The notes: generated from the sequence alone by a model not told the origin. DNA of 64,000 bases from Hadesarchaea archaeon (GCA_029259175.1 JAPDJH010000001.1:128001-192000); one strand, 5' to 3'. Counted from the first letter of the stretch, positions 1 to 22,523 are shown. A program made the numbers and translations.

Positions 1-1390
1 AGGCAATGTTGGGGAGGTTGGAGACGGACCAAACGGGCATCCAGGCGCCGATGCACACGAGCAGCAGGATGTCCCCACCGCCTAGGTGGTGCCAGAGGTT
101 CAAGAACCCCGCGACGAGCAGGGCCCCGAGCATTCCCAGCACGCCGAGCACCGGCAGGATGGTTTCGAAGCTGAGGGACTGTAAGTAGGGGTACTGAGAA
201 AAATCCCAAGCGCCCGCTATGCTCGCCGGAACGGGAGTGAAGTCAAGCCAGCACGCGATGTAGTAGACCGCCGCGGTCGCGGTGAGGGCTTTGACAAGAG
301 CCGCGTTAACGCGCAACGTCAGGGTGTCGACGGCGGCAACCGAGGCGACGAGTCCCAGAACCACCGCGAAGGGGAGCCAGTCCCACGGCGAGACGCCGGC
401 TCCGAGAGCGCCGGGCAACCAGAGGATGAGCCCGGTGGCCAAAACAAACATTGCAAGGCCAAACAGCTTCACTTGAGTTGTAAACTCAAGCGCTCCGGCT
501 GTCGCAAGTGTTGTGGCGCCCGGAAATCTGTGAAACCGAACTGATCCAAAAAGGTGTGCTTTTCTAAGCCCCGCTTTCAGCTTTATTCCTCCGACGATCA
601 AAGCAAAAGCCATCCCCATCAACATCCCTCCCCAAACGAGGTTCGCGGGATCTTGACCCTGCTGAACTTCATAAAATATCTTAAATGTTGGAAGCAACAG
701 GACACCGCCCGTTACAAGGCACGCCCACTCCCAGACCTCTCTCACCAAATCCTTCGGCTCCGCCACAGGTGAAAACCCTACCTTCACGAGATATCCAATT
801 AGGGAAATCGATACCACCATCCAGACCAAATGTTCAACCATCGGAGGAGATCCCACCAACCCGTAGATCTTGACGGCGAGAAATATGAGGGCCGAGAGGC
901 CCACCGCCATAAGCGCCGAGCCCCACATTTTTCTGGCGGACTTTGAAAGCTCGTGAAACTGCGATGATCCTGTTTTGACCGCGAACACGCTTATCGCCAT
1001 CAGAAGCGCCACCCAACATGTATTTTCCGACCCCAGCGAATTCCCAATCAAACCAAAAAGAATCAAAAGCGTCAAAACCGACAGGAACAGGCCAGCTCCC
1101 TCCAGCAGACAGCTTCCACCGACCCTTACTTCCTCATAGGGCACCTTCAACCCGATGATTGTCAGAGCCATCCCCATCGCCACCAAGAGCACTGAGGCCA
1201 GCGCGTTGGCGAAGGTGAGTGTTACACCGATTAGATCCTTTACCGTGATGAAGGCGAATATCAGCGCTCCAAGTCCCATGAAAACAAGCATAAATCCTGC
1301 AATCTTTCCCGTCGTCGTTCTGGTGATCCGTCGTTTTCTCTTGGGGATCCTTGGAATCTCGAACTCCACCACGTCTTTTCGTTTGGGCAC
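1..1390 (-). CDS. Polytopic membrane protein with C-terminal GxGD (A24/prepilin-peptidase-like) aspartic protease domain; 3' end lies outside the window
   Basis: Not in the ORF track because it has no stop in the window. Manual translation from GTG 1390 (GGTGA RBS upstream) is open to position 1: MPKRKDVVEFEIPR..., many hydrophobic helices, then SVAAVDTLTLRVN (first Asp) and HLGGGDILLLVCIGAWM (GxGD motif). Confidence 0.75.
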   Translation of the reverse strand, partial: MPKRKDVVEFEIPRIPKRKRRITRTTTGKIAGFMLVFMGLGALIFAFITVKDLIGVTLTFANALASVLLVAMGMALTIIGLKVPYEEVRVGGSCLLEGAGLFLSVLTLLILFGLIGNSLGSENTCWVALLMAISVFAVKTGSSQFHELSKSARKMWGSALMAVGLSALIFLAVKIYGLVGSPPMVEHLVWMVVSISLIGYLVKVGFSPVAEPKDLVREVWEWACLVTGGVLLLPTFKIFYEVQQGQDPANLVWGGMLMGMAFALIVGGIKLKAGLRKAHLFGSVRFHRFPGATTLATAGALEFTTQVKLFGLAMFVLATGLILWLPGALGAGVSPWDWLPFAVVLGLVASVAAVDTLTLRVNAALVKALTATAAVYYIACWLDFTPVPASIAGAWDFSQYPYLQSLSFETILPVLGVLGMLGALLVAGFLNLWHHLGGGDILLLVCIGAWMPVWSVSNLPNIA

Positions 1391-1394
1391 GGCG

Positions 1395-2822
1395 TCACCG
1401 CCTCTTCTCCTTTAGCTTACCCATCTTCTTCAGCTCCTCTATGCTACTTTCGAGTTGCTCGATGGTGACTCCAAGTTCTCTCGCGGCTTTTGTTTTTGAA
1501 ATTTTGCCGCGGTGCTTCACGATGTATGCCAGCACCTTTTCGTTCAGGTCGGCAGTTTTGCGGTCCTGTTTTTGGAAGGGGAAAGTCGATATGGCCTTGT
1601 GAATCCTGATTTCCAGGAGATCCATGGGAGGAACTTTATACGCGAAATCTCCCTCTTTTTCACTAACTTTTTCAACGCACTGAACCTCCAGCCACGGGTG
1701 CCGAATTATTCCGAAGAGCCTTCCCAGGAAGTAGAGGAGAGACCTCTTTTCGCGCAGATCTCTCACGGCCCAGATTTCCCCGTTGATTAAAAGTCTGCCC
1801 TCGTTTATTCCCGGCGCGTACTGAAGCAACAATCGGGGGCGCGTTTTTTTCAGAACGATGCCCTGAAGGTAAAGCCTGCCGGCAGTTCTGGTTTTCTTGA
1901 CAAGTTGCACCAGCCAATCAGTTGCCCTTTTTACTCTGTTGAACTCTCGCCTGAGCACATTGGGAGACCCGTCGAACATTATCTTGAGAGCGCCCGTTTC
2001 GCCCAACGCTCTTTCGACCGTCTTGTACATGTACCAGCCCTGAACATAGGGGTTGTCCTCCGAGGTGGGGTAGTAGACCCCGTCGTCGCCGACCCTCTCG
2101 GCCTCTATGAAAATTCTGTCGCCGAGCTTGGACGCGATGTATTCGGCCGCTCCCTCGACGAACGCCTGTCCTAGGAAATCCTTCTTGGAGAGTTCGGACA
2201 GGTCCCCTCTCACGGCGTTCATCAGGTAGTGTGTAAGCTCGTGGTAGAGCACCGTCTTCTCGAGGGCCGGATCATTGCACGCGAGGGGATTCACGAACAC
2301 GCGGTTCGGCGGTTTGAAAAGCCCCAGACACGCCTCCTTGAGTTCACCAGTGCCCAGTATCGGGTACCGGGTGAGCTTGAACTTGAAGCCGTGTTCACCC
2401 AACCACTTCATCAAATCCTCGAGTCTCGCTCTCCCGTCGTAAACTATTCGACCGCTCACTCTCCTTCTATCCACTGGTGTGATCTTTGGATCCTTCATAA
2501 GTTCAAGCGCGATCTCCCGAACGGCTTTTTCCTCCCCCTTCACAACGAGCCTAAATCGCTTTGGATACTTCCCGCCCGAGTACCAGATCGAGACAACAGA
2601 GGCGTTAGCGTATCCCTCAAAGTATTTCTTCAGAAACAGCTTGTTCCATTCTTCTGCTGATGTTTTCTTTTTTGCCGATCTGTTGAAGTGCTCCTTGAAA
2701 AGGATGTCTTCGAGAACTCCGTCAACGACTAAAGTTTCAACTTTCGGTGGGGGGGGCTCCGGGCAACGGGCTGAGATCGTATTTCCCCGTTCTGACTTTG
2801 AATCTAACGCGCGTTTCGCCAA
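1395..2822 (-). CDS. Zn metallopeptidase (HEXXH, gluzincin/IrrE-ImmA-like) with C-terminal winged HTH
   Basis: VLYHELTH...FVEGAAEY; C-terminus KISKTKAARELGVTIEQLESSIEELKKMGKLK. Start uncertain because it overlaps the upstream gene. Confidence 0.75.
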   Translation of the reverse strand: MAKRALDSKSERGNTISARCPEPPPPKVETLVVDGVLEDILFKEHFNRSAKKKTSAEEWNKLFLKKYFEGYANASVVSIWYSGGKYPKRFRLVVKGEEKAVREIALELMKDPKITPVDRRRVSGRIVYDGRARLEDLMKWLGEHGFKFKLTRYPILGTGELKEACLGLFKPPNRVFVNPLACNDPALEKTVLYHELTHYLMNAVRGDLSELSKKDFLGQAFVEGAAEYIASKLGDRIFIEAERVGDDGVYYPTSEDNPYVQGWYMYKTVERALGETGALKIMFDGSPNVLRREFNRVKRATDWLVQLVKKTRTAGRLYLQGIVLKKTRPRLLLQYAPGINEGRLLINGEIWAVRDLREKRSLLYFLGRLFGIIRHPWLEVQCVEKVSEKEGDFAYKVPPMDLLEIRIHKAISTFPFQKQDRKTADLNEKVLAYIVKHRGKISKTKAARELGVTIEQLESSIEELKKMGKLKEKRR

Positions 2823-4149
2823 GGTGCGACAGAAACCTGCATTTTTTGATTTCCAAACGCGAATACCGGTGCATCTGATGTCGTGCCTTGGGATCCCCGT
2901 GGACGAATAGAACGAGTTTCGGCCTCGCGCGTTTGATGTTCTCTATGATGTGCTTTGGGTGGGCGTGCCCCCTGATCTCGAACTTCTTCACCCTGCACTT
3001 GACGGTCAGCTCGGACTCGCCGATGCGAAACTTCCCTCCCTCCTCCATCTTCCACAGATGCCATCCCGGCCAGTCCTCGTCCTGATACCCGACGATGAAT
3101 ATGGCGCTCCTCTTCTCGTCAAAGATTTTAATCGCGAGATTGGAGCTCGCCCCCTCCTGCAGCGTGCCGGGAGTCGCGACGAATATGCTCGGCTTCTTGC
3201 TGTCCCTAATCTTCCTGAACCTCTCGTCGGCCTCGGGGTTCGCATCGACGCCCCGGGGAAAGTCGATGCGGGTGAAGCATTCCCATATGGTCGCCACCTT
3301 TTCCCTGTAAGCAGGGTCCTTCCCGATTACGTCCAGCATATGGTTCATCATCCCTATTGAGTAGCACGGAACTCTCGGGAGCTTTCCCTCCCTCATGGCG
3401 CTGGCAATCACATACATGATCTCCTGCGCTCTCCCGGTAGCGAACACGGGGATGAGGATTCTCCCCTTTTGCTGGAGCACGTTCTTCATCTCCTCGATGA
3501 GGCTGTTCTCCGCTGAAATGATGCTGGTGGTCGCATCTGGCCTCGAAAACTCCGCGCCGTACGTGCTCTCGGAGATCACCACATCGGCCTCCTCCCACTT
3601 CTCGAAGTTGCCGCCCATGCGCGTGTCGAAGGTGCAGATGTCGCCTGTGTAGAGTATCGTGGCTCCGTCCCAGTTCAGTACGATTTGGGCGGAGCCGGGT
3701 ATGTGCCCGGCGTCCCTGAAGACGGCGCTGATCCCGTCGTCGATCTGGAACGCTTCTCCGTATTCTCTCGTCTCCCACACATTCTCCGGCGGCAGGGGCG
3801 GCGAGGGTTCGCCTCTTCTCCTCCTCACCCTTACCGCGTCCTTGAGGATGATGTAGGAGAGCTCCTTGGTGAGCGGCGTGGAAAAAATTTTGAGATTTTT
3901 GTTCTTCTCGAGCAACCAGGGCAGGGCCCCGATGTGGTCTCGGTGCGAGTGAGTTATCAGCACCGCCAGCAGCTTCTTGCCTTTCAGCGGTTCGAAGTTG
4001 GGGATTTGGTCTTTTTTCGGCGATGTCCCGCAGTCCAGCATCACGTACCTCTCACCATCACCCACGAGGTAGCAGCTCCTGCCGACCTCGTCTGCCCCCC
4101 CGAGTGGCAAAAATTCTAAAAATTTCTTGGCGCCCGCTTGGTCGGTCAT
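2737..4149 (-). CDS. MBL-fold beta-CASP nuclease (CPSF/RNase J-like)
   Basis: PLGGADEVGRSC, THSHRDHIG, AGHIPGSA, YTGD, SESTYG, GRAQE, GHAH, VHGD. Start placed at ATG 4149 (MTDQAG), just after the upstream stop. Confidence 0.9.
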   Translation of the reverse strand: MTDQAGAKKFLEFLPLGGADEVGRSCYLVGDGERYVMLDCGTSPKKDQIPNFEPLKGKKLLAVLITHSHRDHIGALPWLLEKNKNLKIFSTPLTKELSYIILKDAVRVRRRRGEPSPPLPPENVWETREYGEAFQIDDGISAVFRDAGHIPGSAQIVLNWDGATILYTGDICTFDTRMGGNFEKWEEADVVISESTYGAEFSRPDATTSIISAENSLIEEMKNVLQQKGRILIPVFATGRAQEIMYVIASAMREGKLPRVPCYSIGMMNHMLDVIGKDPAYREKVATIWECFTRIDFPRGVDANPEADERFRKIRDSKKPSIFVATPGTLQEGASSNLAIKIFDEKRSAIFIVGYQDEDWPGWHLWKMEEGGKFRIGESELTVKCRVKKFEIRGHAHPKHIIENIKRARPKLVLFVHGDPKARHQMHRYSRLEIKKCRFLSHLGETRVRFKVRTGKYDLSPLPGAPPTES

Positions 4150-4154
4150 CAGCC

Positions 4155-4523
4155 TCACCGAGCCGAAGTAATTCCTCCCCACGGAAGATATACTTTGCTC
4201 ACCTGGAGTCCCAGCCTGATCCTGCCGCGGCCGATTGCGTTTTCCCACCAGTCAAAGGTCCAGGAGGACTTCAGGGCGGTTTTCACTATGATCTTGTCGT
4301 TCTTCCGCACGCACACTAGGTCCAGCTCCCCGTAGCAGACCCGCAGGGCCCGATCTCCCTCTGCCGCTACCATCCCTTCCCTCACGGCTCTCCTGCACAG
4401 CCTGAGGGCCGCGCTCGGATTGGATATGTTGAAGCGTTGCTTGAGCCTCAGAAGCGCGTGCTTGGTTACCACGAACTTCAGCTTCTTGTTGTCGTTCAGG
4501 TCAACCGCTTTTTCCATTTTCAT
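4155..4523 (-). CDS. DUF4258/RelE-like (BECR-fold) putative RNase toxin
   Basis: VVTKHALLRLKQRF...IIVKTA pattern; small and basic. Confidence 0.6.
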   Translation of the reverse strand: MKMEKAVDLNDNKKLKFVVTKHALLRLKQRFNISNPSAALRLCRRAVREGMVAAEGDRALRVCYGELDLVCVRKNDKIIVKTALKSSWTFDWWENAIGRGRIRLGLQVSKVYLPWGGITSAR

Positions 4524-4546
4524 ACCACAATAATTCTATAATACAA

Positions 4547-4600
4547 GTAGTATATAAATTTTTCTCTTTCTAATACTGGTGGTAAAGGTTTATATACTAC
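4547..4600. promoter_or_regulatory. Divergent promoter/operator: perfect 12-bp inverted repeat containing both TATA boxes
   Basis: GTAGTATATAAA (4547-4558) / TTTATATACTAC (4589-4600), between the RNase operon and the RHH gene. Confidence 0.7.
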
Positions 4601-4627
4601 AAGAGAACAGTAAAAGTGGTGAGGGAA

Positions 4628-4786
4628 GTGGCTGAGAGGAAGGGGAAGGTCACCAGCATCCGAATCAGGGATGAGGGGCTGTGGAAGGAGGCGAAGATGC
4701 TCGCGATAGAGGAAGACACCACCCTGAGCGAGCTGGTGGAGGATCTCTTAAGGAAAGAGCTCGCCAAGAAGAAGTCCGGAAAATAG
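4628..4786 (+). CDS. Ribbon-helix-helix (CopG-like) regulator/antitoxin, 52 aa
   Basis: Below ORF-track cutoff: MAERKGKVTSIRIRDEGLWKEAKMLAIEEDTTLSELVEDLLRKELAKKKSGK; GGTGAGG RBS. Confidence 0.8.
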   Translation: MAERKGKVTSIRIRDEGLWKEAKMLAIEEDTTLSELVEDLLRKELAKKKSGK

Positions 4787-4909
4787 CGGAAGTCAGCATG
4801 AGTGATAACATTAGCAGAAACTCAGGCATGAACCTCGAATGGGCATTGGTGTTTTGTTGAACTGTCGCGAACTAAAAAGGCGAAGGAAAAGCTACTGGGA
4901 GAGAGAATC

Positions 4910-5608
4910 GTGATAGCGGTTTATTATACTGAGAGCGAAACGGGAACGAAAATCTCATGCCCCCTCTGTAAAATGAAACGCGAAGAATGGTATGGCTTGG
5001 AGCCGGAGAACGATGCGGAGCGGAAAAAGCTGGAAGAAAAGCTTGGAGATATTGCAAGCTGGCTTGTTTGTGCGGAGTGCCTCGAAACCGCAGAGCAGAT
5101 ACTTGGCTGTGAGATAAGGCTTGTAACCGCCGAGGATGCAGCAAAGCTCGCTGACGAGCAACTCTCAGAAACCGTTCCCGAAGGGGTTGCAGAGTATATC
5201 AAAGCCGTGGCTGATGAGAAATGCCCGTTTTGCGGGCAACCCGCAGAAGTGAAATTCGAGTATCTTCCCAAGAGCGAAAATTGGGGTGCTTACCTCCCGT
5301 TTAGGCGTGTCATTCTCTCCTGCAGTTCCTGTGGCAGTGTGAAAAAAACAGCCCCGCGCATGGACGAACCTTTGGGGTACTTTGTGATCGGAACAATCCT
5401 TGGTTTTGATAATAGGGTTCTAGTGGTGGAAGTTGCTCCCTCCGCTCCATCGTTTGTGCCAGAGGATATTCGCATTCAAGATAAAGACAGAGAAATCCTT
5501 GTGCTCGAACACCAGTGCGACCCTGTGGTGCTCGGCACTTTCAAGACGGCAGGGGAACTTGTTGAAATCTTGGTGATAGGAAACAAAGCGATTAAGGTCG
5601 AGGGATGA
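4910..5608 (+). CDS. Hypothetical protein with multiple CxxC (two Zn ribbons)
   Basis: CPLC/CAEC and CPFC/CSSC pairs. Confidence 0.65.
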   Translation: MIAVYYTESETGTKISCPLCKMKREEWYGLEPENDAERKKLEEKLGDIASWLVCAECLETAEQILGCEIRLVTAEDAAKLADEQLSETVPEGVAEYIKAVADEKCPFCGQPAEVKFEYLPKSENWGAYLPFRRVILSCSSCGSVKKTAPRMDEPLGYFVIGTILGFDNRVLVVEVAPSAPSFVPEDIRIQDKDREILVLEHQCDPVVLGTFKTAGELVEILVIGNKAIKVEG

Positions 5609-5626
5609 AAGAAGCTATATATTAAC

Positions 5627-6004
5627 ATGCGGAATAACTTCGCTCGTCTGACGCCACGGGAACTCGAAAAGCTCTCCACCGACTTCTTTAGGAAAATGTG
5701 TGGGGAGGTCAAGTCAACACCATACGTGAAGGACTATAGAGCGGACGTCATAGCAGGGGAGGATGACATGTGGTGCTCGTCCAAGCACAGCCGAAGGCAC
5801 AATGTTGGAGGCGAAGTCCAACGAACACTTAGGATGACGCGGAAGCACGGGGCGAACAAGGCGGTGTTTATTACCTCCTCGAACTTTTACCCGGGAAGCG
5901 GAAAAGCATACAAAGGGGTGCCAATCGAGCTTAGAATTGCAACAGATTCTCCTAGCTACTGGAAAGAATTTCGAAGTTTTGGTGGCCTGGTTGCTAGCGT
6001 TTAA
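5627..6004 (+). pseudogene. mrr: Frameshifted Mrr-family (type IV) restriction endonuclease
   Basis: LTPRELEKL, DYRADVIA and KAVFITSSNF are in the listed frame. The catalytic VVLVQA (5770-5787) and FTREAEK (from 5886) lie in other frames. Confidence 0.65.
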
Positions 6005-6073
6005 ATAATAGCGGGTGCTCTTTTGAATCCCAACGTTTTTTATTTTCACCTCCAGAAAGTGATATGCGAAATC

Positions 6074-7051
6074 ATGAGAGTCTCCTTGCTAACAGAGATA
6101 GCTCCAGAGAATAAGCTTTTGAGTAGGATAGCTTCTGAAGCTAGAAACGCAAAGACCGCATTCATAGCGGTTTCATTTATTCAAAGGGAGGGTTTGAAAT
6201 ACTTCTTCGAAAGCATAAAAGGAATGTTAAATAAGGGAAAGCAAGTTACAATTTACACATCGGGTTACCTTCGAATTACTGAGCCAAACGCATTGGAGGA
6301 TCTGTTGAAATTGACTAAAAGCTACAATTCTTTAAAAGTCTATTTTAACCCGGACGACAGGTTCCATTCCAAATTCTTCTTGTTTGAAAAGCCGAACAAA
6401 ACTTATAGCCTTTTTTTGGGTTCTTCTAACATAAGCCTGGGCGGGCTGGCTGAAATTGGGGAGTTAAACGTCCATATTAGTGGCAAAATCTCAGACCAGA
6501 TTTACAGAGACTTGAAAATTGCGATTGACAATCTAAGAAAGAATAGGCGCTTTAAGAAAATTGACAGGGATGTGATATCACAATATAAAACACAATTTAG
6601 AAAACAGAGAAAACGAGAAAGGAGAGGCACGGGGGCGAGACCGGTTTACCACAAACCTTCTCTTCCACCGCTACCAACCTTGCCGGTTTATGTTGTTGTT
6701 GACGAATTCACTAGCGAGGAGATGAGGAAAATCAAAGAAAAACATCCAAGATGGAAAGATTACGTAGACTATATGTCGTCTCTCAACGGGTTGAAAAAAG
6801 GAGATCCCTTTCTTTTAATTAGAAACATTCGTGGGAGACCCAAAATGTTTAATGTTGCTCAATTTATCGAATATGATAGGATTGAAGGCATAGGAAAAAT
6901 TGCTCACATAGAGCCTTACTTCAAAAGAGATCGTCCTCTGAAAAATCTAGCGAAAAAGCTTAGACTCTCAGAGAAAAAGCTTTTGGAGAGGAAAAAATTG
7001 GATAACATTGAGATTGCCATATTGAGAAGAAACTTCAAGATAGACATTTAG
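6074..7051 (+). CDS. PLD-family (NgoFVII-like) nuclease with unassigned C-terminal domain
   Basis: IAVSFI, FHSKFFLFEK (HxK), LGSSNIS..GL...GELN. Likely start ATG 6074. Confidence 0.8.
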   Translation: MRVSLLTEIAPENKLLSRIASEARNAKTAFIAVSFIQREGLKYFFESIKGMLNKGKQVTIYTSGYLRITEPNALEDLLKLTKSYNSLKVYFNPDDRFHSKFFLFEKPNKTYSLFLGSSNISLGGLAEIGELNVHISGKISDQIYRDLKIAIDNLRKNRRFKKIDRDVISQYKTQFRKQRKRERRGTGARPVYHKPSLPPLPTLPVYVVVDEFTSEEMRKIKEKHPRWKDYVDYMSSLNGLKKGDPFLLIRNIRGRPKMFNVAQFIEYDRIEGIGKIAHIEPYFKRDRPLKNLAKKLRLSEKKLLERKKLDNIEIAILRRNFKIDI

Positions 7052-7201
7052 ATAGTGTGAATGACTTTTCCCTCTTTTAGCACTTCCGCAGACATAAGAT
7101 AGCGGAGCGTGAATAAACATGCCTCAGGAGGTTACATCTGCGGAACTTGTGCACATCAACAAGGCTTGTGTAAGTAGGTTTGCACTTAATCTACGGTTTC
7201 G

Positions 7202-7292
7202 TGGCGGGTGGCGGATCCCATCGGGGTTTCCTAAGGCCCATTCCGAGGACGATATCAATGGGAGACGACCCGAAGGCTCCCGCCACCCGCCG
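7202..7292. other. GC-rich nested hairpin, candidate ncRNA/cis element
   Basis: GGCGGGTGGCGG (7203-7214) pairs perfectly with CCGCCACCCGCC (7280-7291); inner stems TCGGG/CCCGA and CCCATT/AATGGG. Confidence 0.5.
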
Positions 7293-7420
7293 TAATAGAA
7301 TTTTGGTAGAGATTTTTAGAGGTTATGTTTGCTTGGGAGACACTTGTGGAGGACTACATCCCTTCTTCACAGAACTTTTTTGGAGGACGGACGGGCCCCT
7401 ATTTGTCATTAGAAAGCAAA

Positions 7421-8431
7421 TTAAATTTTTTCTAAGAGACCTAGCCAGTCCTGCTTGCTCTTGACTAGAAATCCGCTACTTGCTAGAAAACTGCCGTCTG
7501 GACGGTCTTTGATCGGCACGATGTGGATCGGATACTTCCCCTCTGGATCCAGCTCCTTTATTTTAGGATGCGCTCGAACCGCCTTCTCGGAGAAGATTCC
7601 GAGCCCAGCATAGATCTCTATTCTCCTTTTTTCTTTTCGCCCGGCCAAACGGCACTGCGCAATTATAGGAACACGAAGATCCAGACGGGCTTTCTCAACA
7701 AATCCGGGTATGTAGACGGGGGGTGGCTCGAATTCAGGAATGAGATCCCAAATTTCTTTTTCAGCTTCTTTGGTCAACACTCCAATTTCCCTGCCCAGCG
7801 GAAACAGTTTTTCGCGAATGATGCTAATGTGCTTAAAGAATGAAATCATGTGAGTAATCGGCACGCCACTCTTTACCAAGACAAAAACGTCAGAGTGCTG
7901 AACTTGAGCGCCGGGAAGCTCAAGCCAAGCTCCTTGAAATTTCGTGTCTTTAATGCTTACTCTCAGCCTGGGTTTTGTCCAATTGGCACCCGGTTTTTTG
8001 ATTTCAGAAATGTCGCGCGGGAGATATTTTTCTAAAGGCCCCCTTGTTTTGTCCACGCGCGCCTCAACTCCAAAATGCTCTTTCAAAAACTTCACGAACC
8101 CTATTTCGCCGAGCTCGCCACGCGTCGAGTCCGCCCACTTCTGTAACAGGTCGCGCTCCCCGCCGGTCCGGAAGTCTATCGAAGCATAGCTGAATGCAAG
8201 GCTGAGCCCCCGGATAACTGCTGTTGCGTACTCCTCCGTGTTCAGCCACACTAACCGATCCTGGAGGCGTGAGAGCCACTCCGCAACGTTTTCCCGTATT
8301 AGCTCGCCAACTCTCGTGGCGCTACGCACCAGCTTTTTTGACAAATCTTCCGCGGTTTCCTTTCTCAACCCGTGCTTTCTCATCACCCGTTTGACTTCCT
8401 CACGCACTTCCGCTTCCCAGTGCTTCATCAT
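7421..8431 (-). CDS. Putative type II restriction endonuclease, PD-(D/E)XK fold
   Basis: RGELGEIGF...PRDI...SIKDTK. Lies in an operon divergent from a C5-MTase. Confidence 0.65.
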   Translation of the reverse strand: MMKHWEAEVREEVKRVMRKHGLRKETAEDLSKKLVRSATRVGELIRENVAEWLSRLQDRLVWLNTEEYATAVIRGLSLAFSYASIDFRTGGERDLLQKWADSTRGELGEIGFVKFLKEHFGVEARVDKTRGPLEKYLPRDISEIKKPGANWTKPRLRVSIKDTKFQGAWLELPGAQVQHSDVFVLVKSGVPITHMISFFKHISIIREKLFPLGREIGVLTKEAEKEIWDLIPEFEPPPVYIPGFVEKARLDLRVPIIAQCRLAGRKEKRRIEIYAGLGIFSEKAVRAHPKIKELDPEGKYPIHIVPIKDRPDGSFLASSGFLVKSKQDWLGLLEKI

Positions 8432-8511
8432 TACCCATCCGATGCAATAAATTTAAGTTTTAAGTGCAGGCTCTCCCAACGGCTTCAAACCCTTGTGGAA
8501 CCGCGGTTTTC

Positions 8512-9108
8512 TTAGAGGAGCTTATCAAGCTCCGCGTAGAGCTCTTTTCTAGATAAAACAGTGCTATTCGTCTTCTTGAATTTCGCGCGGATCCGCCGGA
8601 GAAGCGCACGCACGCTCTCCGGCTTAAGCTGGCGCGAGCGTTTAACCAACCAAGACATTATCCGGGGATCGTTCTTAATTGCAGAATCAAAGAACTCCAC
8701 CCAAGTTCTCCATCTCTCCTGCGAGGCAACCTCTGGTGGCATTTTTGCAAGCTCATATGAATACCGGAATATAGGATGCCGGAGAAGAGTTTTTTCTGAA
8801 AATCTATGCACCGAAGCGTGGTACTGCGCTGCTTCCAGAAACAAAAACAGCTCTGTTTGCGGGAGAGCGAAAAGCTTTCTCGCTTTCTTCCACAAGCGCT
8901 CCAACTCCTTCCCAAACCAGTACCAGTACTCGGATCCGTATCTTCTAGCATTGGGGAAGCGATTCCGCATTCTCCGCTCAATAGTTGGCACTTCGGCGCT
9001 CAAATATGCGTCCACTCTGTCGGCGGTTTCTTTTTCTTGATAGGTTATTGCACCCCCGCCTGCTTTCTTGTAAAAGGGCTCGTCGCCACGGCGTACGAGA
9101 ACGGGCAC
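8512..9108 (-). CDS. Hypothetical protein, weakly DUF1016/YhcG-N-like helical domain
   Basis: YWYWFGKEL...RWRTWVEFFD; starts 2 nt after the GHKL gene stop. Confidence 0.55.
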   Translation of the reverse strand: MPVLVRRGDEPFYKKAGGGAITYQEKETADRVDAYLSAEVPTIERRMRNRFPNARRYGSEYWYWFGKELERLWKKARKLFALPQTELFLFLEAAQYHASVHRFSEKTLLRHPIFRYSYELAKMPPEVASQERWRTWVEFFDSAIKNDPRIMSWLVKRSRQLKPESVRALLRRIRAKFKKTNSTVLSRKELYAELDKLL

Positions 9109-9110
9109 GT

Positions 9111-11084
9111 TTATGCCCCCTTTTTCTCCAGTATGAGAGAAACCAAATCGGTTGAAGTTTTCAAAACTTCTTCAGCACTCATTTCTTTATCGAACGGTTT
9201 TAGTCCTTCCATAGCCATTATCTCAGCGACGGCGCGCGCTAGGAGCTCCACAGCATATTCATTTGTGCTTTCCTGATTTCGGCACCTCAGGCGGTACTGA
9301 GGGTGACTGGTGCTGATTTTTAACACATACCCTCCTTCTGGGTGGCTCTCTACTCTAAATTGCGGATTGAGCTCCTTTTCCCCAAATTTTCCTGAGAGCT
9401 TAGGTACATACTTGATATCGCGGAATATTCCAGTTGCTGGTGGCGGGTCCTGCTCAACCCACAGTGTAAAGATTGCTGTATCGAGTTTTTCGCCTTTATG
9501 ATGTCTTGGATGTTCCAAGCACTCTAGCTCAGCAATCAGCTTGCACCTCCCTGGTGCAAGCTTTCCTGCGCTTATCTGGACACGAAAATCTCCAATTTGT
9601 TTTTTCTCTCTTGGAGCTATATTTGCCCGCTTTTTGCGTAAAAGATCTTTGACGGTCACACCTGCCTGCTCGAGGCGCGCGCCAACTTCCACCCGCGCCT
9701 TGCAATCAGTTCTGTTTGCAACCTCTAAAGTAAACGATACTTCTTCTCCAAAATCAACGCGCGAGTAGCCTCTGGGAAGATTCAGATTTTTAAAAGCCAC
9801 ACCGATGTCCCGTGGCGAAACATGTGGGCGTCTCTTCCCTGGACGTCCTTCCGAAAGGGTAATACCTAGTTCCTTCAGCAGACGGTTAAAATCACGCAGG
9901 AGCTGGTAAAATCCGGCTGGCCTCTCTTTGACTTCAATACCCAGTTTCTCCTCAGCGAACCTGCGGAGTTCGTTAGCCAAGAATGCTCTTATTTGAGGCA
10001 CAATCCCTCGGCCAAAGGCGCTTGCCGTTCTTATGAATCCGTAGTGCGTTGGATCCTCCACTTTTTTCAGCAATTCTTCCGTGCCCATATCTCCTTCAAA
10101 AAATCCGTAGATACGATCCGCTTTCTCTGGCGGGAGATCTGTCAAATCGCTGACGGGAAATCTAGTAATAACCATTCCGCCTCGCAAGATCGCTATGCCT
10201 CGGACATCTTCTGGAGGGGGGGACTCAAGAAAACACAGATTGAGCATCTTTACGCGCGTAGACCTTTTGCCTCTCTTAAGCAGACAATCTCGCCTTATCC
10301 AAACTTTTACGCTTTTTGAATCCTCTGTCGGAAACCTCAACTCGCTCGGAACCTCAACTGTCTGCTCATCACTACCGTGCTTCAAAATTACGCGGAGAGA
10401 GCCATTTTCCAACAGTCGCCACCAAGTAGTTTGAATATACCTTTTAAACGATCCATTTAGAAAGGCTTCTTTCAGCTCTTCTACAGGGTCAACGATGATT
10501 ATCCTAGTCCCAACAGTCTGAAGAGGTTGCAAAGCAGGGAAATATTGCTTTAACATTGCTCGTGCTCTTGCTCCCTCCACGGGGTTGTCTAAATCGCCCA
10601 ACTTTCGGGCGCCCAGTCTGTACACTCCGTCCTTTCGGTAGGTATCGTACACTATAAGATGCTTTTTTGAGTTCATCACGAAAACAAATTTTCCTTGCCC
10701 CCGTGCCCCGCGCTTTGTCGGATCTGGACGCAGAAATGCGTAACCTTCAAAACGGCCCCATCTTTCTTCTTCTGGTAGATCGCGCCTCATTTCCTCCTCC
10801 GAAAGGATTCGGCCTGTAAGACCCGTTGTGCCACTGTCAGCAATAATGAAAAGCGGAGGGTTTGCTTCATCGATTAGCTCGAACCGCACTACTATCTGCC
10901 GTGCGTTAGGATCTTGGGCATCTACCGAATTCTGAAGCGCGTCCTTCTGGAGTGGATGAATTAAATTGTCTACGTGGTATAGATAGTTACGCTTGATGTT
11001 GTCAAGGACCCCCTCCCAAAAAGTAGGAGTCTGTCGTCGCGCTTCACTTATGCGCTTCTCAATTTTGTCAATGTTTACTATCAT
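9111..11084 (-). CDS. GHKL (Hsp90/MORC-like) ATPase with C-terminal beta-sandwich-like region
   Basis: KDALQNSVDA, IADSGTTGL, RGARGQGK, GTRI. Start placed at ATG 11084. Confidence 0.8.
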   Translation of the reverse strand: MIVNIDKIEKRISEARRQTPTFWEGVLDNIKRNYLYHVDNLIHPLQKDALQNSVDAQDPNARQIVVRFELIDEANPPLFIIADSGTTGLTGRILSEEEMRRDLPEEERWGRFEGYAFLRPDPTKRGARGQGKFVFVMNSKKHLIVYDTYRKDGVYRLGARKLGDLDNPVEGARARAMLKQYFPALQPLQTVGTRIIIVDPVEELKEAFLNGSFKRYIQTTWWRLLENGSLRVILKHGSDEQTVEVPSELRFPTEDSKSVKVWIRRDCLLKRGKRSTRVKMLNLCFLESPPPEDVRGIAILRGGMVITRFPVSDLTDLPPEKADRIYGFFEGDMGTEELLKKVEDPTHYGFIRTASAFGRGIVPQIRAFLANELRRFAEEKLGIEVKERPAGFYQLLRDFNRLLKELGITLSEGRPGKRRPHVSPRDIGVAFKNLNLPRGYSRVDFGEEVSFTLEVANRTDCKARVEVGARLEQAGVTVKDLLRKKRANIAPREKKQIGDFRVQISAGKLAPGRCKLIAELECLEHPRHHKGEKLDTAIFTLWVEQDPPPATGIFRDIKYVPKLSGKFGEKELNPQFRVESHPEGGYVLKISTSHPQYRLRCRNQESTNEYAVELLARAVAEIMAMEGLKPFDKEMSAEEVLKTSTDLVSLILEKKGA

Positions 11085-11216
11085 CACCAAGACCTTTTTC
11101 TTCCATTTATTTAATAACTCCTCAAACGCCCAGTAATAGCAAAATGAAAAGATGCGAGCGCTGAAAGTAGCATAAAACTCAAATCCCCAAGTCATCTAGA
11201 TAAATCTGGTGAAAGA

Positions 11217-12605
11217 GTGAAGCACAAGGTTGTATCGCTGTTTTCGGGAGCCGGCGGGCTGGATTTGGGTTTTGCTTCTTCAGGAAAATTTGAAATACTG
11301 CTGGCAAACGAAATCTTGGATCCCCCAGCTGAAACTTATTCGCTGAACTTTAAAGTTGAAAAAGTAAGCCAGCGCGTGTCCCTTCCATGCATTTTGAGGT
11401 CTGATGTTGCCGACCTGGACTTCTCAACGCTTCAGGGAAGTGAGATAGACGTCGTTATAGGAGGGCCACCGTGCCAAGACTTTTCAATAGTTCGAGGACC
11501 GGCGACGGAGAGGAAGGGAGTGGAGGTAAAACGAGGCAGGTTGTACGCGCACTTTGTGCGGGCTTTGATAAAATTGCAACCCAAGGTTTTCGTGTTCGAA
11601 AATGTTCCAGGCTTGAAAAGCTCCAACAATGGCTTGGCATATCGAACTATTTTAGAGGATTTTAAGAATCTTGGCATTCGATGGGCGGAGGTAAAGGAAG
11701 TTCTGGAGAAGCAGAACGGCAACGGGAAGAGCGTCGGCTACGAAGTAGTGTTCAGCGAAGTAGTGAATATGTCAAAATTGGGAGTTCCTCAAGCGCGGGA
11801 GAGGCTTATCATCGTCGGCGTGAGGCGTGATATTCTTCATGCAGGAGGTGGCGCTCGTTTGTGGAGGCTGGCTCAGCACCTCCGCACGGTCCTTAGCGGT
11901 TGTGGAAAAGCGGTTTCAGACTGCCCTCTAACCCCCATCGAAGCTTTTGAAGGGAAGCCTCTCCCAGAACTCCAAAGCGTATACGAGGACGTGATGAGGG
12001 AATATGCTGATGTCTTTTCCGAAGTTGCTACATCGACAGCGAAGGAGTGGAAGCGAAAAGTCTGGGACCGCCTCACGTTCGACGCGGTGAGAGACTACAC
12101 ATATATAAACGAAATAAAAGTGCCAGAAAACTGGCTTGAAAATGCCTTTAAGGAGCACGCGGAGCTTCTCGAGGAGCTTGGATACAAAGGCGTCAAAGTG
12201 GCGGAGATAGCGCCTCCAGACGGAAGCAATGCTAGGCCGAAAGAGTCCCGAACCGTCATCGAAAGGCTTAAGAGAATTCCGCCCGGGGCGAACCACGAAT
12301 TTGTAAGGGGAACCAAATGGGAGGTTGAAGGGCGGGGCATGAGCCTCATATACCGGCGCATCTTTCCCCTGAAGCCTGCGTATACGGTAGTAGCGTACGG
12401 TGGCGGTGGAACGTGGGGGTATCACTACGAGCGGGATCGAGGAATGCTTACCAACCGAGAACGGGCCCGGCTTCAAACATTTCCCGACTGGTTTTTGTTC
12501 TGCGGAGGGTGGGCGCAAGTTCGAGCGCAGATAGGCGAAGCTGTTCCGCCTCTTGCAGCAAAAAGGATTGCTAGCGCGCTTGATGAATTCTTGAAGCATG
12601 TCTGA
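11217..12605 (+). CDS. dcm: DNA (cytosine-5)-methyltransferase
   Basis: LFSGAGG, GGPPCQDFS, ENVPG, QARER, RERARLQTFPD, QIGEAVPP. Confidence 0.95.
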   Translation: MKHKVVSLFSGAGGLDLGFASSGKFEILLANEILDPPAETYSLNFKVEKVSQRVSLPCILRSDVADLDFSTLQGSEIDVVIGGPPCQDFSIVRGPATERKGVEVKRGRLYAHFVRALIKLQPKVFVFENVPGLKSSNNGLAYRTILEDFKNLGIRWAEVKEVLEKQNGNGKSVGYEVVFSEVVNMSKLGVPQARERLIIVGVRRDILHAGGGARLWRLAQHLRTVLSGCGKAVSDCPLTPIEAFEGKPLPELQSVYEDVMREYADVFSEVATSTAKEWKRKVWDRLTFDAVRDYTYINEIKVPENWLENAFKEHAELLEELGYKGVKVAEIAPPDGSNARPKESRTVIERLKRIPPGANHEFVRGTKWEVEGRGMSLIYRRIFPLKPAYTVVAYGGGGTWGYHYERDRGMLTNRERARLQTFPDWFLFCGGWAQVRAQIGEAVPPLAAKRIASALDEFLKHV

Positions 12606-12650
12606 ACTCGCTATCGACTTTTTAATTTGCCCGGAAGCAAATAAAAAATC

Positions 12651-13325
12651 GTGCGGGCGCAAGAGAAGAAGACTGAGTTCAGAAAGCAGATGATCAAGTG
12701 GTACAGAAGATACGGAAGGCACGATCTTCCGTGGAGGAAGACTTCCGATCCTTGGAAAATACTGCTAGCTACATTAATGCTCAGAAAAACAACAGCTCGG
12801 CAAACAGAGAAGATTTATAAGAAGTTCATAGAGCGCTATCCCAATCCCCAAAGCGTGTGTTCTGAAAGCGAGAAGAAAATCAGGTCAGTGATACGCCCGC
12901 TGGGGATAGAACACCAGCGCGCGCGCCTGATAAAGCGCTTGGCCTCAGAAATTGTGGAAAAATTTGGGGGAAATGTGCCAGCAGATATGCGCAAGCTGAA
13001 GTTACTTAAAGGGGTTGGCGAATACACCGCTTCAGAAGTTCTGCTTGTAGCTTACGGCGAGCCACGACCGCTTTTAGACCGTAACATGATTCGAGTAATA
13101 GAGAGAGTCTTCGGCATAAAATCAAAAAAAGCGCGACCCCACACGGATGCACAACTTTGGAAATTCTGTAAGAGCTTGCTTCCAAAGGATCCGGAGCTGG
13201 CAAAGGAATTTAACTACGGGGTGCTGGACTTTGCTAGCTCAATCTGCCAAATCACGCCGAAGTGCGAACGTTGCCCGCTACGCTTAATCTGCTATTATTT
13301 TGCCAGACGGAAAGTTGGCGCTTAA
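12651..13325 (+). CDS. HhH-GPD [4Fe-4S] mismatch glycosylase (MIG/MutY family; T:G repair)
   Basis: DLPWRKT, LMLRKTTA, LKGVGEYTA, LLDRNMIRV, CQITPKCERCPLRLIC; directly downstream of dcm. Confidence 0.85.
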   Translation: MRAQEKKTEFRKQMIKWYRRYGRHDLPWRKTSDPWKILLATLMLRKTTARQTEKIYKKFIERYPNPQSVCSESEKKIRSVIRPLGIEHQRARLIKRLASEIVEKFGGNVPADMRKLKLLKGVGEYTASEVLLVAYGEPRPLLDRNMIRVIERVFGIKSKKARPHTDAQLWKFCKSLLPKDPELAKEFNYGVLDFASSICQITPKCERCPLRLICYYFARRKVGA

Positions 13326-13554
13326 TCTTCATCAGAGCGCGACCGTTCTCGTCCCGAACGAAATCCTTTTTCTGTGCTCTCTTACCACGCAAGAAGATTC
13401 GAGCGGTTTATGCCCTTTTCCGCTTTCGGGATTTGGACACTCTTCGCTGGATGCCCCCCGCGGGACCTGCTCTTCCTACCAATCTGGGAAATTATAGGGC
13501 TTCTTTTTCGCAAAAAGGCTGCGTAAATCCTGCTTTGGTTTTACACATCCTGGC

Positions 13555-13583
13555 TATTTCACGATTAGATTTATATTTCACGA
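13555..13583 (+). promoter_or_regulatory. Direct-repeat operator flanking a TATA box
   Basis: TATTTCACGA at 13555-13564 and 13574-13583, around TTTATAT, upstream of the wHTH gene. Confidence 0.5.
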
Positions 13584-13604
13584 AAAATGAGGTAGACCGA
13601 CGCT

Positions 13605-15206
13605 ATGGGCAGGAACCCCGTCACGCGAAACGAAATAGCGAAGGTTCTTTCCGACCTCAAGCCGAGGAGCGTGAGAGAAATAGCCGAGGAAGCAGGTCTC
13701 ACTCCAAAAGTCGTTGGGGCTGCCCTGGACCGGATGTGGAGGGCAGGGCTGGTGCTCCGGACGAGGCAGCCCATCCGAGAGCGAACGAAGATCTTCAGGG
13801 GACGAGCTGGGACGAGTGAGAACCTGCGGTCCTACTACCTCTATGTGCTGAAGCCCGAAGGGAAGGAGAGGTTGAGAATTGGGGAACACGAGTTCGTCCC
13901 ATTCTCCACAGAGTACTTGGATGTGCGGGGAGGGGGGAGGATCAGCAAAGCGAAGCTGATTCTGGAGTTCCTGCGGAAGCACCGGGACAGGGCGTGGTTC
14001 TCCGTCGAGATAGCGGAGGCGCTGAAGGACAAGGGCGTGAAGGTGCGGGACATCATGCCCACCGTAAGGCGCTACCAGCGGAGGGGGCTGGTTTTCGTGA
14101 AGGGATTTACAACGGCTGGCGGGCGGGAGACCCCGACCGAGTATGGGTATGTCATCACTTGGCTTGATCGTGACAAGCCGATTGAGCGGGCGATTGAGGA
14201 GGCGCTGAAGCGGTATGAAGCCGCCCTGAACCGCAAGCGGCTCGAGTCACCTACGGTCGAGCGCTACAACCGCGTCCGCGAGCTTATCATAACCCAATCC
14301 AAGCTCGGGCACCTTACCGATGTGGAGTACATCACGAACCAGCTCCGCTGTTCGAGGTATCAGGCTCAGGATGCCCTTAAGAGGGTTCAGCAGCTCTTCG
14401 GCGACATAAAGGAGGTCAAGCTCTTCGACCTCTACAAGTTCTACTACCACGAGTCGATGCCGGAGGCGAAGCTCAGGGCAGCGATAAAGATGAAGGAGCA
14501 GTACATACGGGCACATGGCGGGCGGAAGCACCGTTATGGGCACAACTGGGAAGCGGTGGTGGAGTGGTTCGTCGAGACTTTCACTCCCGGGGCACGCTTC
14601 TGGGAGCAAAAGCACAGGGGGGAAGGGATGGATCCGCGGAGGATAACCCTCTACTTGATAAAGAATGTGGGGAAGCGGAGGCGACGGGCGGAGGTTGACC
14701 GCGTGTGGGAGGTGCGGGAGGATCCCTTCAGCCCACCGACCGTCAATGTGCTCTCCTGTAAAGCGGGGGTGGTGCGCAAGCAGGACATAGAGGACTTCTT
14801 TGAGGTTCTGCGCTGGAGCAAGGAGTTCGGGGCGGACACCCCGGACGGGAGGGTGATAAAGCAGGGAGTCGTCGGGAAGTTCGCCGCCGAGACCTTCGAC
14901 CCGCGTGAGAAAGTCAAGCTGAAGGACGGGACGGAGATAACCCTCTCCCAGTACGCGAGCAGGCTTGGCATCACCCTCATCAAGGCTTCCGACTTCAACG
15001 AAATGATGCGGAAGTGGGGATGTTCCCCGAAGGTGAATGTCCAGAAGATTTGTAAGTGGGCCAAGAACGAGAAAGAGGTCAGGGAGATCTTGACATCGAT
15101 TTACCAGAATCCATCGCGAGCCGAAGAAATCTTGGAAAAAGTTAGAGAACGAAACCTTCCGCTTTACCAGTTTGAGAAAAAACTTGAGGAGAGTGGAAAA
15201 TGTTAG
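13605..15206 (+). CDS. Multi-wHTH protein with C-terminal PD-(D/E)XK-like nuclease domain
   Basis: SVREIAEEAGLTPKVVGAALDRM and FSVEIAEALKDKGV (HTHs); NWEAVVEW...EVDRVW...LSCK. Confidence 0.65.
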   Translation: MGRNPVTRNEIAKVLSDLKPRSVREIAEEAGLTPKVVGAALDRMWRAGLVLRTRQPIRERTKIFRGRAGTSENLRSYYLYVLKPEGKERLRIGEHEFVPFSTEYLDVRGGGRISKAKLILEFLRKHRDRAWFSVEIAEALKDKGVKVRDIMPTVRRYQRRGLVFVKGFTTAGGRETPTEYGYVITWLDRDKPIERAIEEALKRYEAALNRKRLESPTVERYNRVRELIITQSKLGHLTDVEYITNQLRCSRYQAQDALKRVQQLFGDIKEVKLFDLYKFYYHESMPEAKLRAAIKMKEQYIRAHGGRKHRYGHNWEAVVEWFVETFTPGARFWEQKHRGEGMDPRRITLYLIKNVGKRRRRAEVDRVWEVREDPFSPPTVNVLSCKAGVVRKQDIEDFFEVLRWSKEFGADTPDGRVIKQGVVGKFAAETFDPREKVKLKDGTEITLSQYASRLGITLIKASDFNEMMRKWGCSPKVNVQKICKWAKNEKEVREILTSIYQNPSRAEEILEKVRERNLPLYQFEKKLEESGKC

Positions 15207-19688: not shown

Positions 19689-20267
19689 TTACTTAATTTT
19701 ACTCCATTTTCCAACATACCTTTCAGGATACATATGTAGATTCTTTTCAACTTTCAGACGGTATTTGGGAGGGATTTTTCTCTTGTATTCCTCATATGTA
19801 GGATAACGGCAGAGAAGACACGGATTGGTTTTTGGATGAGCAGCACCGAATTCCTTTCTTTTCCCCCTCCATATCATCTTCTTCACTTCTTCTCGCAACT
19901 CTCCGTGGGTGAATATTATGAATTCTTTCGGTTTGTGTCCTTCAAAAGTTACGAACACGCAATAATCAAATTTTTTCTGGATGATTTGCTTGCCAAGCCC
20001 AAAAGATGCATCAGCGTAGCCATCCTCATCAATCAACCCTGTTTTTACCTCCACTCTCTTCCCTTTATCTGGAAGATAAATGTCGGCGGATTTGTCTTCT
20101 CTTTCATCCAATATCTGAACTTTGTGCCCTCTCTTCAACAATTCAAGGGCGACTAAGTATTCCGCATATCTTTCCCTTAATTTTTTGTCAGAAATTTCAA
20201 CCTGATCCAAAATCCTCAACACTCTTTCAAGATATTTTACGATTAAACTCAGTTCCTTCTTTCTCAT
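19689..20267 (-). CDS. PD-(D/E)XK nuclease (putative REase)
   Basis: YAEYLVALELLKRG...ADIYL...RVEVKTG. Start ATG 20267. Confidence 0.7.
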   Translation of the reverse strand: MRKKELSLIVKYLERVLRILDQVEISDKKLRERYAEYLVALELLKRGHKVQILDEREDKSADIYLPDKGKRVEVKTGLIDEDGYADASFGLGKQIIQKKFDYCVFVTFEGHKPKEFIIFTHGELREEVKKMIWRGKRKEFGAAHPKTNPCLLCRYPTYEEYKRKIPPKYRLKVEKNLHMYPERYVGKWSKIK

Positions 20268-21400: not shown

Positions 21401-21402
21401 GG

Positions 21403-22489: not shown

Positions 22490-22523
22490 TCACCACTGTA
22501 CAGGCGGGAGGCATATAAGGTGG

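Follow-up and report, generated by a model that had tools for sequence, protein, structure and literature searches.

The first 4,786 nucleotides (nt) of the window, by which we mean the whole 64,000-nt stretch of DNA analysed here (G000:C1:128001-192000; Hadesarchaea archaeon, GCA_029259175.1), hold a compact gene cluster in which a nuclease of the beta-CASP type and a zincin-type peptidase are parts of a single, frameshifted gene. The host genome is 1.3 Mb long, lies in 23 contigs and is 90.9% complete, and a host gene that flanks the stretch (DUF763) has its nearest relatives, at 63-75% identity, in metagenome-assembled genomes (MAGs) variously labelled Hadarchaeota, Hadesarchaea or Hodarchaeaceae. 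An initial annotation of the cluster described four minus-strand open reading frames (ORFs) and a divergent plus-strand ORF, and all of these are indeed present. Running leftwards on the minus strand, they are a small-protein ORF (4155-4523; 122 amino acids (aa)), which is the first gene of the leftward unit, the beta-CASP ORF (2737-4248; an open frame of 503 aa, of which the gene part is 2737-4158), the HEXXH ORF (1395-2822; 475 aa), which is the second half of the fusion gene, and a membrane-protein ORF that occupies positions 1 to 1390 (ORF 2-1390, open at the edge) and supplies the first 463 codons of 660. Facing away from them on the plus strand lies the putative ribbon-helix-helix (RHH) ORF (4616-4786), which runs to 56 aa from its first GTG, the 52 aa given earlier fitting a later GTG.

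The same annotation took the leftward ORFs for four tightly packed or overlapping genes, and it is here that our view differs most, since the locus is three genes followed by downstream ORFs, with the beta-CASP and HEXXH ORFs making up one frameshifted gene. These two ORFs overlap by 86 nt, and the membrane gene begins 4 nt past the fusion-gene stop. At the other end, the likely start of the beta-CASP part is GTG 4158 or ATG 4149, and because GTG 4158 shares the letters GTGA with the TGA stop of the small gene, the longer ORF overlap vanishes at this likely start. That annotation also suggested recovering the contig upstream to complete the operon. Read leftwards as L002 (C1:113001-133000), the contig gives a membrane protein of 660 aa (ORF L002:14408-16390), reaching 592 nt left of the window, and the tightly spaced run continues beyond it with a 102-aa ORF with two transmembrane (TM) segments after a 6-nt spacer and then, 82 nt farther on, a 248-aa ORF with a hydrophobic segment at its N-terminal end, which begins MKLGRTH.

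The fusion gene and its break at a run of eight cytosines

The evidence for a single gene comes from comparison with its relatives. In P0123, a protein of 938 aa from Candidatus Hadarchaeales, residues 26-481 are 54% identical to the window beta-CASP and residues 481-887 are 42% identical to the HEXXH ORF, and both alignments join at the single residue 481. When the read-through product of 950 residues is bridged by an X placed at the break, it gives a single high-scoring segment pair of 874 columns, at 48% identity, to P0138 and P0123, and likewise single pairs of 854 columns to P0139 and of 875 columns (41%) to P0141; the intact fusion proteins of Hadarchaeales MAGs are 931-938 aa long. The break itself falls in a homopolymer of eight C (C8; 2749-2756, minus strand), where the minus strand reads ...ccc gga gCC CCC CCC acc gaa agt tga, with the second ORF in the +1 frame across the eight C and a 0-frame stop 4 codons downstream. 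Judged on these alignments, the beta-CASP and HEXXH ORFs are one gene, split by a +1 frameshift at C8. The frameshift is also reproducible, since the stretch is present in three sequencing runs whose contigs (Logan, assembled separately; word depth 5.3, 25 and 13.8) have 0 differences, 0 indels and the same C8, although the three runs belong to one hydrothermal-vent study, from which the assembly itself may derive, and variants present in a minority of reads would not show in contigs.

As far as contigs can tell, the window copy may be dead, it may be made as two pieces or it may be switchable at C8. The fusion gene could be a plain pseudogene killed by the frameshift, and the cluster decaying cargo, a proposal that gains from the identical frameshift in the contigs of all three runs and from a second half that has no good start codon of its own, the database gene call for the HEXXH protein being a 382-aa product that starts at residue 94, within the conserved ferredoxin-like domain; in addition, no attR could be found for the mobile element described below, so the element may be degraded. 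We nevertheless consider a plain pseudogene rather unlikely, as both halves are otherwise open (503 and 475 codons) and retain HSHRDH, HELTH and the invariant E223, which speaks for either a very recent event or continued use. The reading that we favour, set out in full below, would have the window copy either inactivated only recently or silenced at the homopolymer. It is also conceivable that C8 acts as a true switch, so that strand slippage that changes the length of the tract, or +1 slippage on CCC-C during translation or transcription, yields the full-length fusion in some cells. In bacteria, restriction and surface genes often contain homopolymer contingency loci, +1 slippage occurs readily on CCC-C, and the break lies exactly in the homopolymer with the frames intact on either side. 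However, the contigs are all C8 (minority variants would be hidden in them), no stimulatory stop or structure adjoins C8, where the 0-frame stop comes 4 codons on, and to our knowledge homopolymer switches are barely documented in archaea; a switch of this kind therefore strikes us as quite improbable.

The first half of the fusion was called as a beta-CASP protein in the initial annotation, and rightly so, with Lactamase_B (62.5 bits, cut-off 22.7), Beta-Casp (49.6, cut-off 27.7) and RMMBL (PF07521; 26.6, cut-off 21.6) all above their Pfam thresholds and HSHRDH intact in the translation. In the order of its metallo-beta-lactamase (MBL), beta-CASP and RMMBL domains and in its HxHxDH motif it resembles aCPSF1/FttA, aCPSF2 and CPSF73, and the RMMBL module makes it more likely that the nuclease is an RNase. 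The best NCBIfam match is aCPSF1 (TIGR03675), but at 220 bits the score is far under the cut-off of 580 and covers model positions 163-614 only, and the window protein differs from aCPSF1 in having no KH domains, in its fusion to a zincin and in its place on a mobile island. Cas14 (NF045584), the beta-CASP effector of type VII CRISPR systems, likewise has the beta-CASP core in common, yet here too the score (195.5 bits over model positions 6-425 of 612) is far under its cut-off of 800. None of the scanned ORFs around the cluster was called as a cas gene, and no search was aimed at CRISPR arrays. Identity of the window beta-CASP to the fused proteins is 54, 45, 40 and 35-37%, the highest value being that to the N-terminal halves of P0123, P0138 and P0139, and identity to stand-alone beta-CASP relatives (n=3144, among listed proteins of at most 823 aa) is 35% or less. 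On these values, the window beta-CASP probably groups with the fused forms as a distinct clade. The host genome has a separate 639-aa beta-CASP gene elsewhere.

For the second half the domain order is ferredoxin/ACT-like, gluzincin HExxH, beta-rich and, at the C-terminus, an HTH (helix-turn-helix)-like module. An AlphaFold2 model of the HEXXH ORF, made from a 12-sequence alignment, has a mean pLDDT (predicted local distance difference test score) of 62.8, with residues 130-300 mostly at 75-93. When this model was compared with 48,161 chains in a VIA fold search, residues 120-304 matched gluzincin catalytic domains at Z 8-10.4 with 155-175 residues aligned, the matched folds being M1 aminopeptidases, leukotriene A4 hydrolase, thermolysin and the uncharacterised hydrolase 3cmn, and residues 28-118 matched ACT, NikR-C and S6-type ferredoxin-like folds at Z ~7-8. 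HELTH lies at residues 194-198, with H194, E195 and H198 on a helix (185-205), and the following helix (216-233) carries an invariant E223 and a near-invariant E227, which is the gluzincin pattern, so that an HExxH helix and a subsequent helix with an invariant Glu are common to the window protein, to the clan MA gluzincins (M1, thermolysin) and to IrrE/ImmA. By motif, candidate Glu ligand and predicted fold, then, the HEXXH domain is a zincin/gluzincin (clan MA).

The earlier proposal of a HEXXH protease of the IrrE/ImmA/CapP type thus keeps its zincin fold and loses its family name. Indeed, the Pfam peptidase families are all below threshold (M9 at 13.9 bits; M78, PF06114, at 13.3 against a cut-off of 22, E 0.074), and the IrrE/ImmA (M78) label is not earned; IrrE is absent from the 50 fold rows listed, an absence that does not exclude an IrrE type. 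In contrast to the established members of clan MA and M78, the window protein reaches no Pfam peptidase threshold and has no sequence match to solved structures, sequence searches of which gave nothing useful for the HEXXH protein or its profile. Foldseek against the PDB with the HEXXH model gave no match at E<=0.001, and neither did a viral fold library, in which the weak rows were M48 and SprT-like. As for the tail, residues 416-474 are common to 8 otherwise unrelated proteins, and this HTH-like module has weak HTH_PafC/EutK_C matches only, in a part of the model where confidence is low.

A small family of nuclease-peptidase fusions

A word-index search with the HEXXH protein found only its own database entry, but an exhaustive HMMER search (by profile hidden Markov model, HMM) returned 16 proteins. 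One of them is the query itself, 7 have the core in common with it, and in the other 8 the match is confined to the last 60-90 residues. Six of the seven core-matching proteins carry an N-terminal MBL/beta-CASP domain, and the seventh is a 251-aa fragment. The fusions come in two sizes. Besides the window copy, the short forms comprise P0123, P0138, P0139 and P0141, which represents P0124's cluster at full length; the window copy, P0123 and P0124 have kept an intact HExxH, and the C-terminal ends vary, with the HTH-like tail in the window, a zinc ribbon in P0123 (and also in the fragment P0125) and in P0141 a stop soon after the core. The long forms, of 1179-1612 aa, are P0126, P0127/P0142 (labelled Thermococcus sp.), P0129 and an ORF of the metagenomic locus L007, and after the HEXXH region they add a TM helix and a large InlB B-repeat domain. 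In one further protein, P0136, the start is DnaJ-like and HELAH is retained.

Searches of genomes add little to this set. In the phylum set of 66 genomes, the HEXXH profile A1 matches two, one of which is the host and the other weak (E 3.6e-6), and with the same alignment no convincing relative was found in species-representative genome contigs and none in viral contigs. A scan of genome contigs and viral contigs with the beta-CASP protein found no locus, and the long-form alignment A3 has one weak and unconvincing bacterial match in species-representative genomes. A single metagenome scan gave two usable long-form loci, L006:8243-11656 and L007:8477-13183, each with beta-CASP, an HxxxH pseudo-zincin, a TM helix and an InlB-B-repeat ectodomain. 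Both adjoin genes for thymidylate kinase, a dNMP (deoxynucleoside monophosphate) kinase and other large InlB-repeat surface proteins, and nothing in either neighbourhood is similar to the window's other proteins. L006 has a topoisomerase I gene beside the long form as well (L006:3555-6899), split by an intein with a LAGLIDADG domain, and a 413-aa ORF at L007:4761-6002, a few kb from the long-form gene, has a Cas12f1-like TNB domain (TnpB-type). The family is rare, small and patchy, with members from MAGs of Hadarchaeales, from a single Thermococcus MAG and from contigs assigned to no bin.

The architecture in which a beta-CASP domain is fused to a zincin appears to be undescribed. We found no beta-CASP-peptidase fusion in the Creative-Commons full-text literature, which is a subset only and not proof of being undescribed, and in the archaeal beta-CASP papers of that literature the term 'peptidase' is missing, with the exception of one unrelated mention. 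In the literature searched, therefore, a CPSF73-type nuclease covalently joined to a thermolysin-like peptidase is unreported, and the family furnishes a defined set of proteins for testing how a nuclease is coupled to a protease or pseudo-protease. Particularly instructive is the split between short forms, with HExxH and, in some, a tail of the DNA-binding type, and long forms, without the Glu and with a membrane-anchored surface domain. There is also a practical lesson at this locus, which is that its 'two overlapping genes' are a frameshift.

A parallel is provided by the polyvalent proteins of phages and conjugative elements (Iyer et al. 2017, PMC5512222), in which a zincin-like domain with HExxH plus Glu is joined to nucleic-acid enzymes and proposed to be a polypeptide processor. 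Like the window fusion, these are multidomain proteins of mobile elements that combine a zincin with a nucleic-acid enzyme; unlike them, the window fusion has only two catalytic domains, and delivery with DNA has no support. Polyvalent proteins are described there as scarce in archaea, and the words 'lactamase' and 'beta-CASP' occur 0 times in the article.

The companion genes and the divergent promoter region

The membrane protein downstream of the fusion gene was put down in the initial annotation as a GxGD membrane protease, which stands at the level of a domain, for the C-terminal half. With Pfam default filters there is no match in this protein, and sequence searches of solved structures gave nothing useful. 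A six-frame genome scan with PF01478 recovered a canonical A24 gene at C1:69697-70023 (59.9 bits), and the PF01478 match inside the 660-aa protein reached only 9.5 bits against a cut-off of 26.5. Canonical A24 genes, of ~225-430 aa, occur once each in 26 of the 31 related genomes searched, including the host, and an order-specific A24 HMM built from 25 of these 26 loci was far more telling: with it, the 660-aa protein scores 33.8 bits (E 7.2e-9) and ranks second among 6323 genome ORFs, the next ORF being at 15.0 and the best of 1000 block-wise shuffles (946 scored) at 7.6 bits. Two collinear pieces match the HMM, one at residues 407-501, where HHLGGGDILLLVCIGAWMP lies, and one at residues 601-650, where GYPFVPAMLIGLL lies. 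HHalign to A24 gives 92.5% probability and E 4.8e-7 over 283 columns (residues 268-658), and the GGGD with D440 aligns to the canonical GGD, that is, to the second catalytic Asp; D355 lies one column off the canonical first Asp in HHalign, in a region that HMMER leaves unaligned. The Atlas feature search points to A24 too, at only 0.81. Taken at the domain level, these alignments support a divergent A24-like domain with the GxGD Asp in the C-terminal half, behind a polytopic region of 340 aa.

Family A24 comprises the archaeal type IV prepilin peptidases PibD, FlaK and EppA. The window protein has in common with these enzymes the GGGD then GA..P pattern and the collinear C-terminal PF.P..L.G helix, and it departs from canonical A24 proteins in its length of 660 aa, its additional N-terminal polytopic region of 340 aa and an insertion of ~100 aa. 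This raises the idea that the membrane protein is an element-borne prepilin peptidase that matures the small membrane proteins downstream, with the fusion gene an unrelated neighbour. The A24-like domain and its GGGD, the 102-aa two-TM ORF and hydrophobic-start 248-aa ORF that follow, and an InlB-B-repeat ORF nearby, with the same repeat as in the long-form ectodomains, would all be at home in such a scheme. Against this, the Pfam and PHROG scans that were run contain no assembly ATPase, platform protein or recognisable pilin, MKLGRTH, judged by eye, lacks the charged residue that usually precedes the Gly, and a spacer of only 4 nt links the membrane gene with the fusion gene, so we put very little store by a prepilin peptidase unconnected with the fusion.

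At the head of the cluster, the small protein was earlier proposed to be a RelE-fold RNase toxin, and for this there are hints of fold but no family. The 122-aa protein has no Pfam match even at E<=10 and no NCBIfam or PADLOC match; its best PHROG families, at E 1.1e-3 and 3.4e-3, are without named function, and in the Atlas it scores best (0.90) to unnamed clusters and 0.85 to a RelE-superfamily cluster. A single-sequence AF2 (AlphaFold2) prediction at pLDDT 52.9 shows a b-a-a-b-b-b-b order, and with this low-confidence model the VIA search places a Pyrococcus hypothetical protein at the top (Z 6.5) and RelE, ParE, YoeB, HigB and CdiA toxin entries in rows 2-24 (Z 4.3-5.4). Such toxins fill most of the Foldseek list too, where the best E is 0.049; none reached E<=0.001 against the PDB, and sequence searches of solved structures yielded nothing useful. 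The predicted b-a-a-b-b-b topology is like that of the RelE/ParE toxins, but unlike these the small protein has no family match, identifiable catalytic residues or adjacent co-transcribed antitoxin. We therefore treat a RelE/ParE-like fold as possible, a lead from a predicted model and not a finding.

The divergent RHH protein stays below all curated cut-offs, with RHH_4 at 16.5 bits against 25 (E 8.9e-3), DUF6364 at 20.1 against 27.3 (E 8.9e-4), Antitox_RHH at E 9.3e-3 and Arc-like repressors in PHROG at E 1.2e-3 and 1.7e-3, so that the call as RHH draws on several sub-threshold matches that agree with one another. It is tempting to pair it with the small gene as a toxin-antitoxin system (RelE-like/RHH) that stabilises the element independently of the downstream genes, as RelE/ParE-type entries dominate both fold lists and Antitox_RHH is among the weak matches. 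The two genes are divergent and not co-transcribed, however, and all of these scores are below significance, which makes such a pair very unlikely indeed. The RHH protein probably acts on the promoters, as follows.

Between the RHH and small genes, the divergent promoter region (4547-4600) contains, as the initial annotation correctly saw, a perfect 12-bp inverted repeat over both TATA boxes, GTAGTATATAAA / TTTATATACTAC, at 4547-4558 and 4589-4600, and this repeat extends to 17 nt at 88%. It is the sole perfect repeat of at least 12 bp with a loop of at most 60 in the 64-kb window. Markov simulations give an average of 0.37 such repeats per window, so that on a window-wide scale it is unremarkable, but shuffling the 92-bp intergenic region yields such a repeat in 23 of 20000 trials, so it is unlikely to be there by chance. 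Each arm of the repeat carries TTTATATA, directed at its own gene and ~20-28 nt from the start codon, distances that would fit two near-leaderless divergent archaeal promoters. The repeat is likely to be the operator of the RHH protein, a candidate role that would have the protein repress both promoters. Moreover, because the RHH gene heads a rightward run at 4910-7051 that encodes a Zn-ribbon protein, an Mrr_cat protein and a PLD nuclease with 18-nt spacers, the repeat may control two nuclease-bearing units.

The mobile island and what the cluster may do

The cluster sits on a mobile, restriction-rich island. To its left, an intron-bearing tRNA (L002:5624-5712, from window -9376; 55 bits with Rfam, without a name from ARAGORN) is overlapped by the 3' end of an intact tyrosine integrase of 420 aa with a C-terminal zinc ribbon (L002:5694-6956, to window -8044). 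After the integrase come an HTH protein, a 915-aa primase-polymerase (prim-pol)/helicase and a PadR-like protein; for the primase, matches are confined to the prim-pol domain found in haloarchaeal plasmids (26-36% identity), and the element therefore belongs to no known plasmid family. In a congener (L048; G003:C3:84000-103000), the same tRNA is followed by ~10 kb without similarity to the host genome (~3900-14300), and the tRNA may be a recurrent integration site. A plus-strand ORF of 215 aa at L002:12614-13261 (window -2386 to -1739), which a 221-aa ORF overlaps in a different frame, has an InlB B-repeat (Flg_new_2, 23.1 bits) and no signal peptide; that this repeat also makes up the long-form ectodomains may be a coincidence or a remnant.

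To the right, in the island at window 4910-27630, we find Mrr_cat, a PLD nuclease (mREase_IV/DrmC-like), a type II restriction endonuclease (PADLOC 180 bits), a C5 methylase, HhH-GPD, EVE, an N6 methylase with an S domain, R.Pab1, N4/N6 methylases and a ParB-methylase fusion, amounting to at least 4 restriction-modification-type modules right of the cluster. The Zn-ribbon protein there has a weak PDC-M01B match, several ORFs of 200-700 aa (9111-11195, 19689-24518) belong to no family, and GC content is 0.38-0.43 in parts of this island against 0.55-0.57 farther right. The alternative raised in the initial annotation, a place inside a conjugation/pilus or virion module where the A24 enzyme simply processes pilins, was not borne out, as no gene of these kinds appears in the Pfam and PHROG scans of most of the larger surrounding ORFs.

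Four things are established here, namely the fusion gene with its reproducible frameshift, the zincin fold, the A24-like domain and the mobile, restriction-rich setting. Beyond these, our favoured reading, to which we would give a probability of about 0.55, is that a plasmid-like element integrated into a Hadarchaeota genome carries the stretch as a cargo operon, the core of which is the frameshifted beta-CASP-ACT-gluzincin-HTH fusion, a protein that would take part in the element's conflict with its host or with rival elements. The core gene would encode a beta-CASP nuclease, a ferredoxin/ACT-like domain, a gluzincin peptidase and an HTH-like tail in one polypeptide, accompanied by the small, possibly RelE-like gene upstream and by the A24-like membrane protein and small membrane ORFs downstream, with the divergent RHH protein probably repressing both promoters through the symmetric TATA-containing repeat. 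In such a conflict, the nuclease may serve as the effector, with the peptidase as the domain that processes or gates it. A role in defence is a guess from context, made for a singleton operon.

Several observations weigh against this reading and are best considered together. The single-base frameshift may merely mark a dead gene, and no RNA runs that contain the stretch are listed. Confidence in the HEXXH-ORF model is only moderate at its mean of 62.8, and the aligned long forms have H-x-x-x-H with Leu or Thr replacing the catalytic Glu in all 4 of 4; with the catalytic Glu lost there, peptidase activity is not essential to the fusion family. The surroundings of L006 and L007 look chromosomal, not defensive. 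The membrane protein finds only itself in a word-index search of 5.8 billion proteins, and for the small protein, which is poorly modelled, tblastn at E<=1 found nothing among 50,697 phage records, and in the 66 phylum genomes the protein finds itself only, apart from a chance-level match at E 0.049. Given that neither the small nor the membrane protein has homologues in these searches, the operon is a singleton, and the linkage of its parts is unsupported by conservation. PADLOC-DB 2.0 gave no system match, with stray weak matches to LmuA (15.6 bits) and CasR (14.9 bits). Finally, the search for attachment sites found neither on the contig nor within the window a second copy of the tRNA 3' end, and thus no attR, and synteny with the congener G003 breaks directly past the same tRNA, so that it marks no border of the element.

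The initial annotation had put forward a rather different possibility, a protease-gated system for defence or abortive infection built from four separate proteins. In such a model the HEXXH protein would be a sensor that releases or activates the nuclease and RNase effectors, with help from the membrane protease. Much in it is sound: the surroundings are rich in restriction-modification genes, the genes are tightly spaced, and the nuclease, zincin and aspartyl-peptidase (A24-like) domains are real. As a system it fares less well, in that the nuclease and protease, taken there for separate partners, are one polypeptide in 6 of the 7 core-matching relatives, as in the frameshifted gene here; in that the suggested check with DefenseFinder or PADLOC gave, for PADLOC, no system-level match, and IrrE/ImmA is not reached; and in that the small and membrane partners have no homologues in our searches, so that no co-occurrence is shown. 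We find a four-protein defence system distinctly doubtful for these reasons. Bolder than our favoured reading is the notion that the beta-CASP-ACT-zincin-HTH protein is the effector of an undescribed conflict system borne by mobile elements of archaea, in which a ligand- or protease-gated RNase works with an A24-like intramembrane protease and its expression is switched at C8 by changes in tract length or by +1 slippage. We regard this as a long shot, but if it were true, the C8 switch would join a very short list of contingency loci known from Archaea.

At window 28213-29140, an ORF for a DUF6036 nucleotidyltransferase overlaps a 137-aa ORF on the opposite strand and is followed by an archaeal ATPase_2 gene, and this stretch, near a tRNA-Asp (32054-32131), may be a further toxin-antitoxin-like or mobile-element module.

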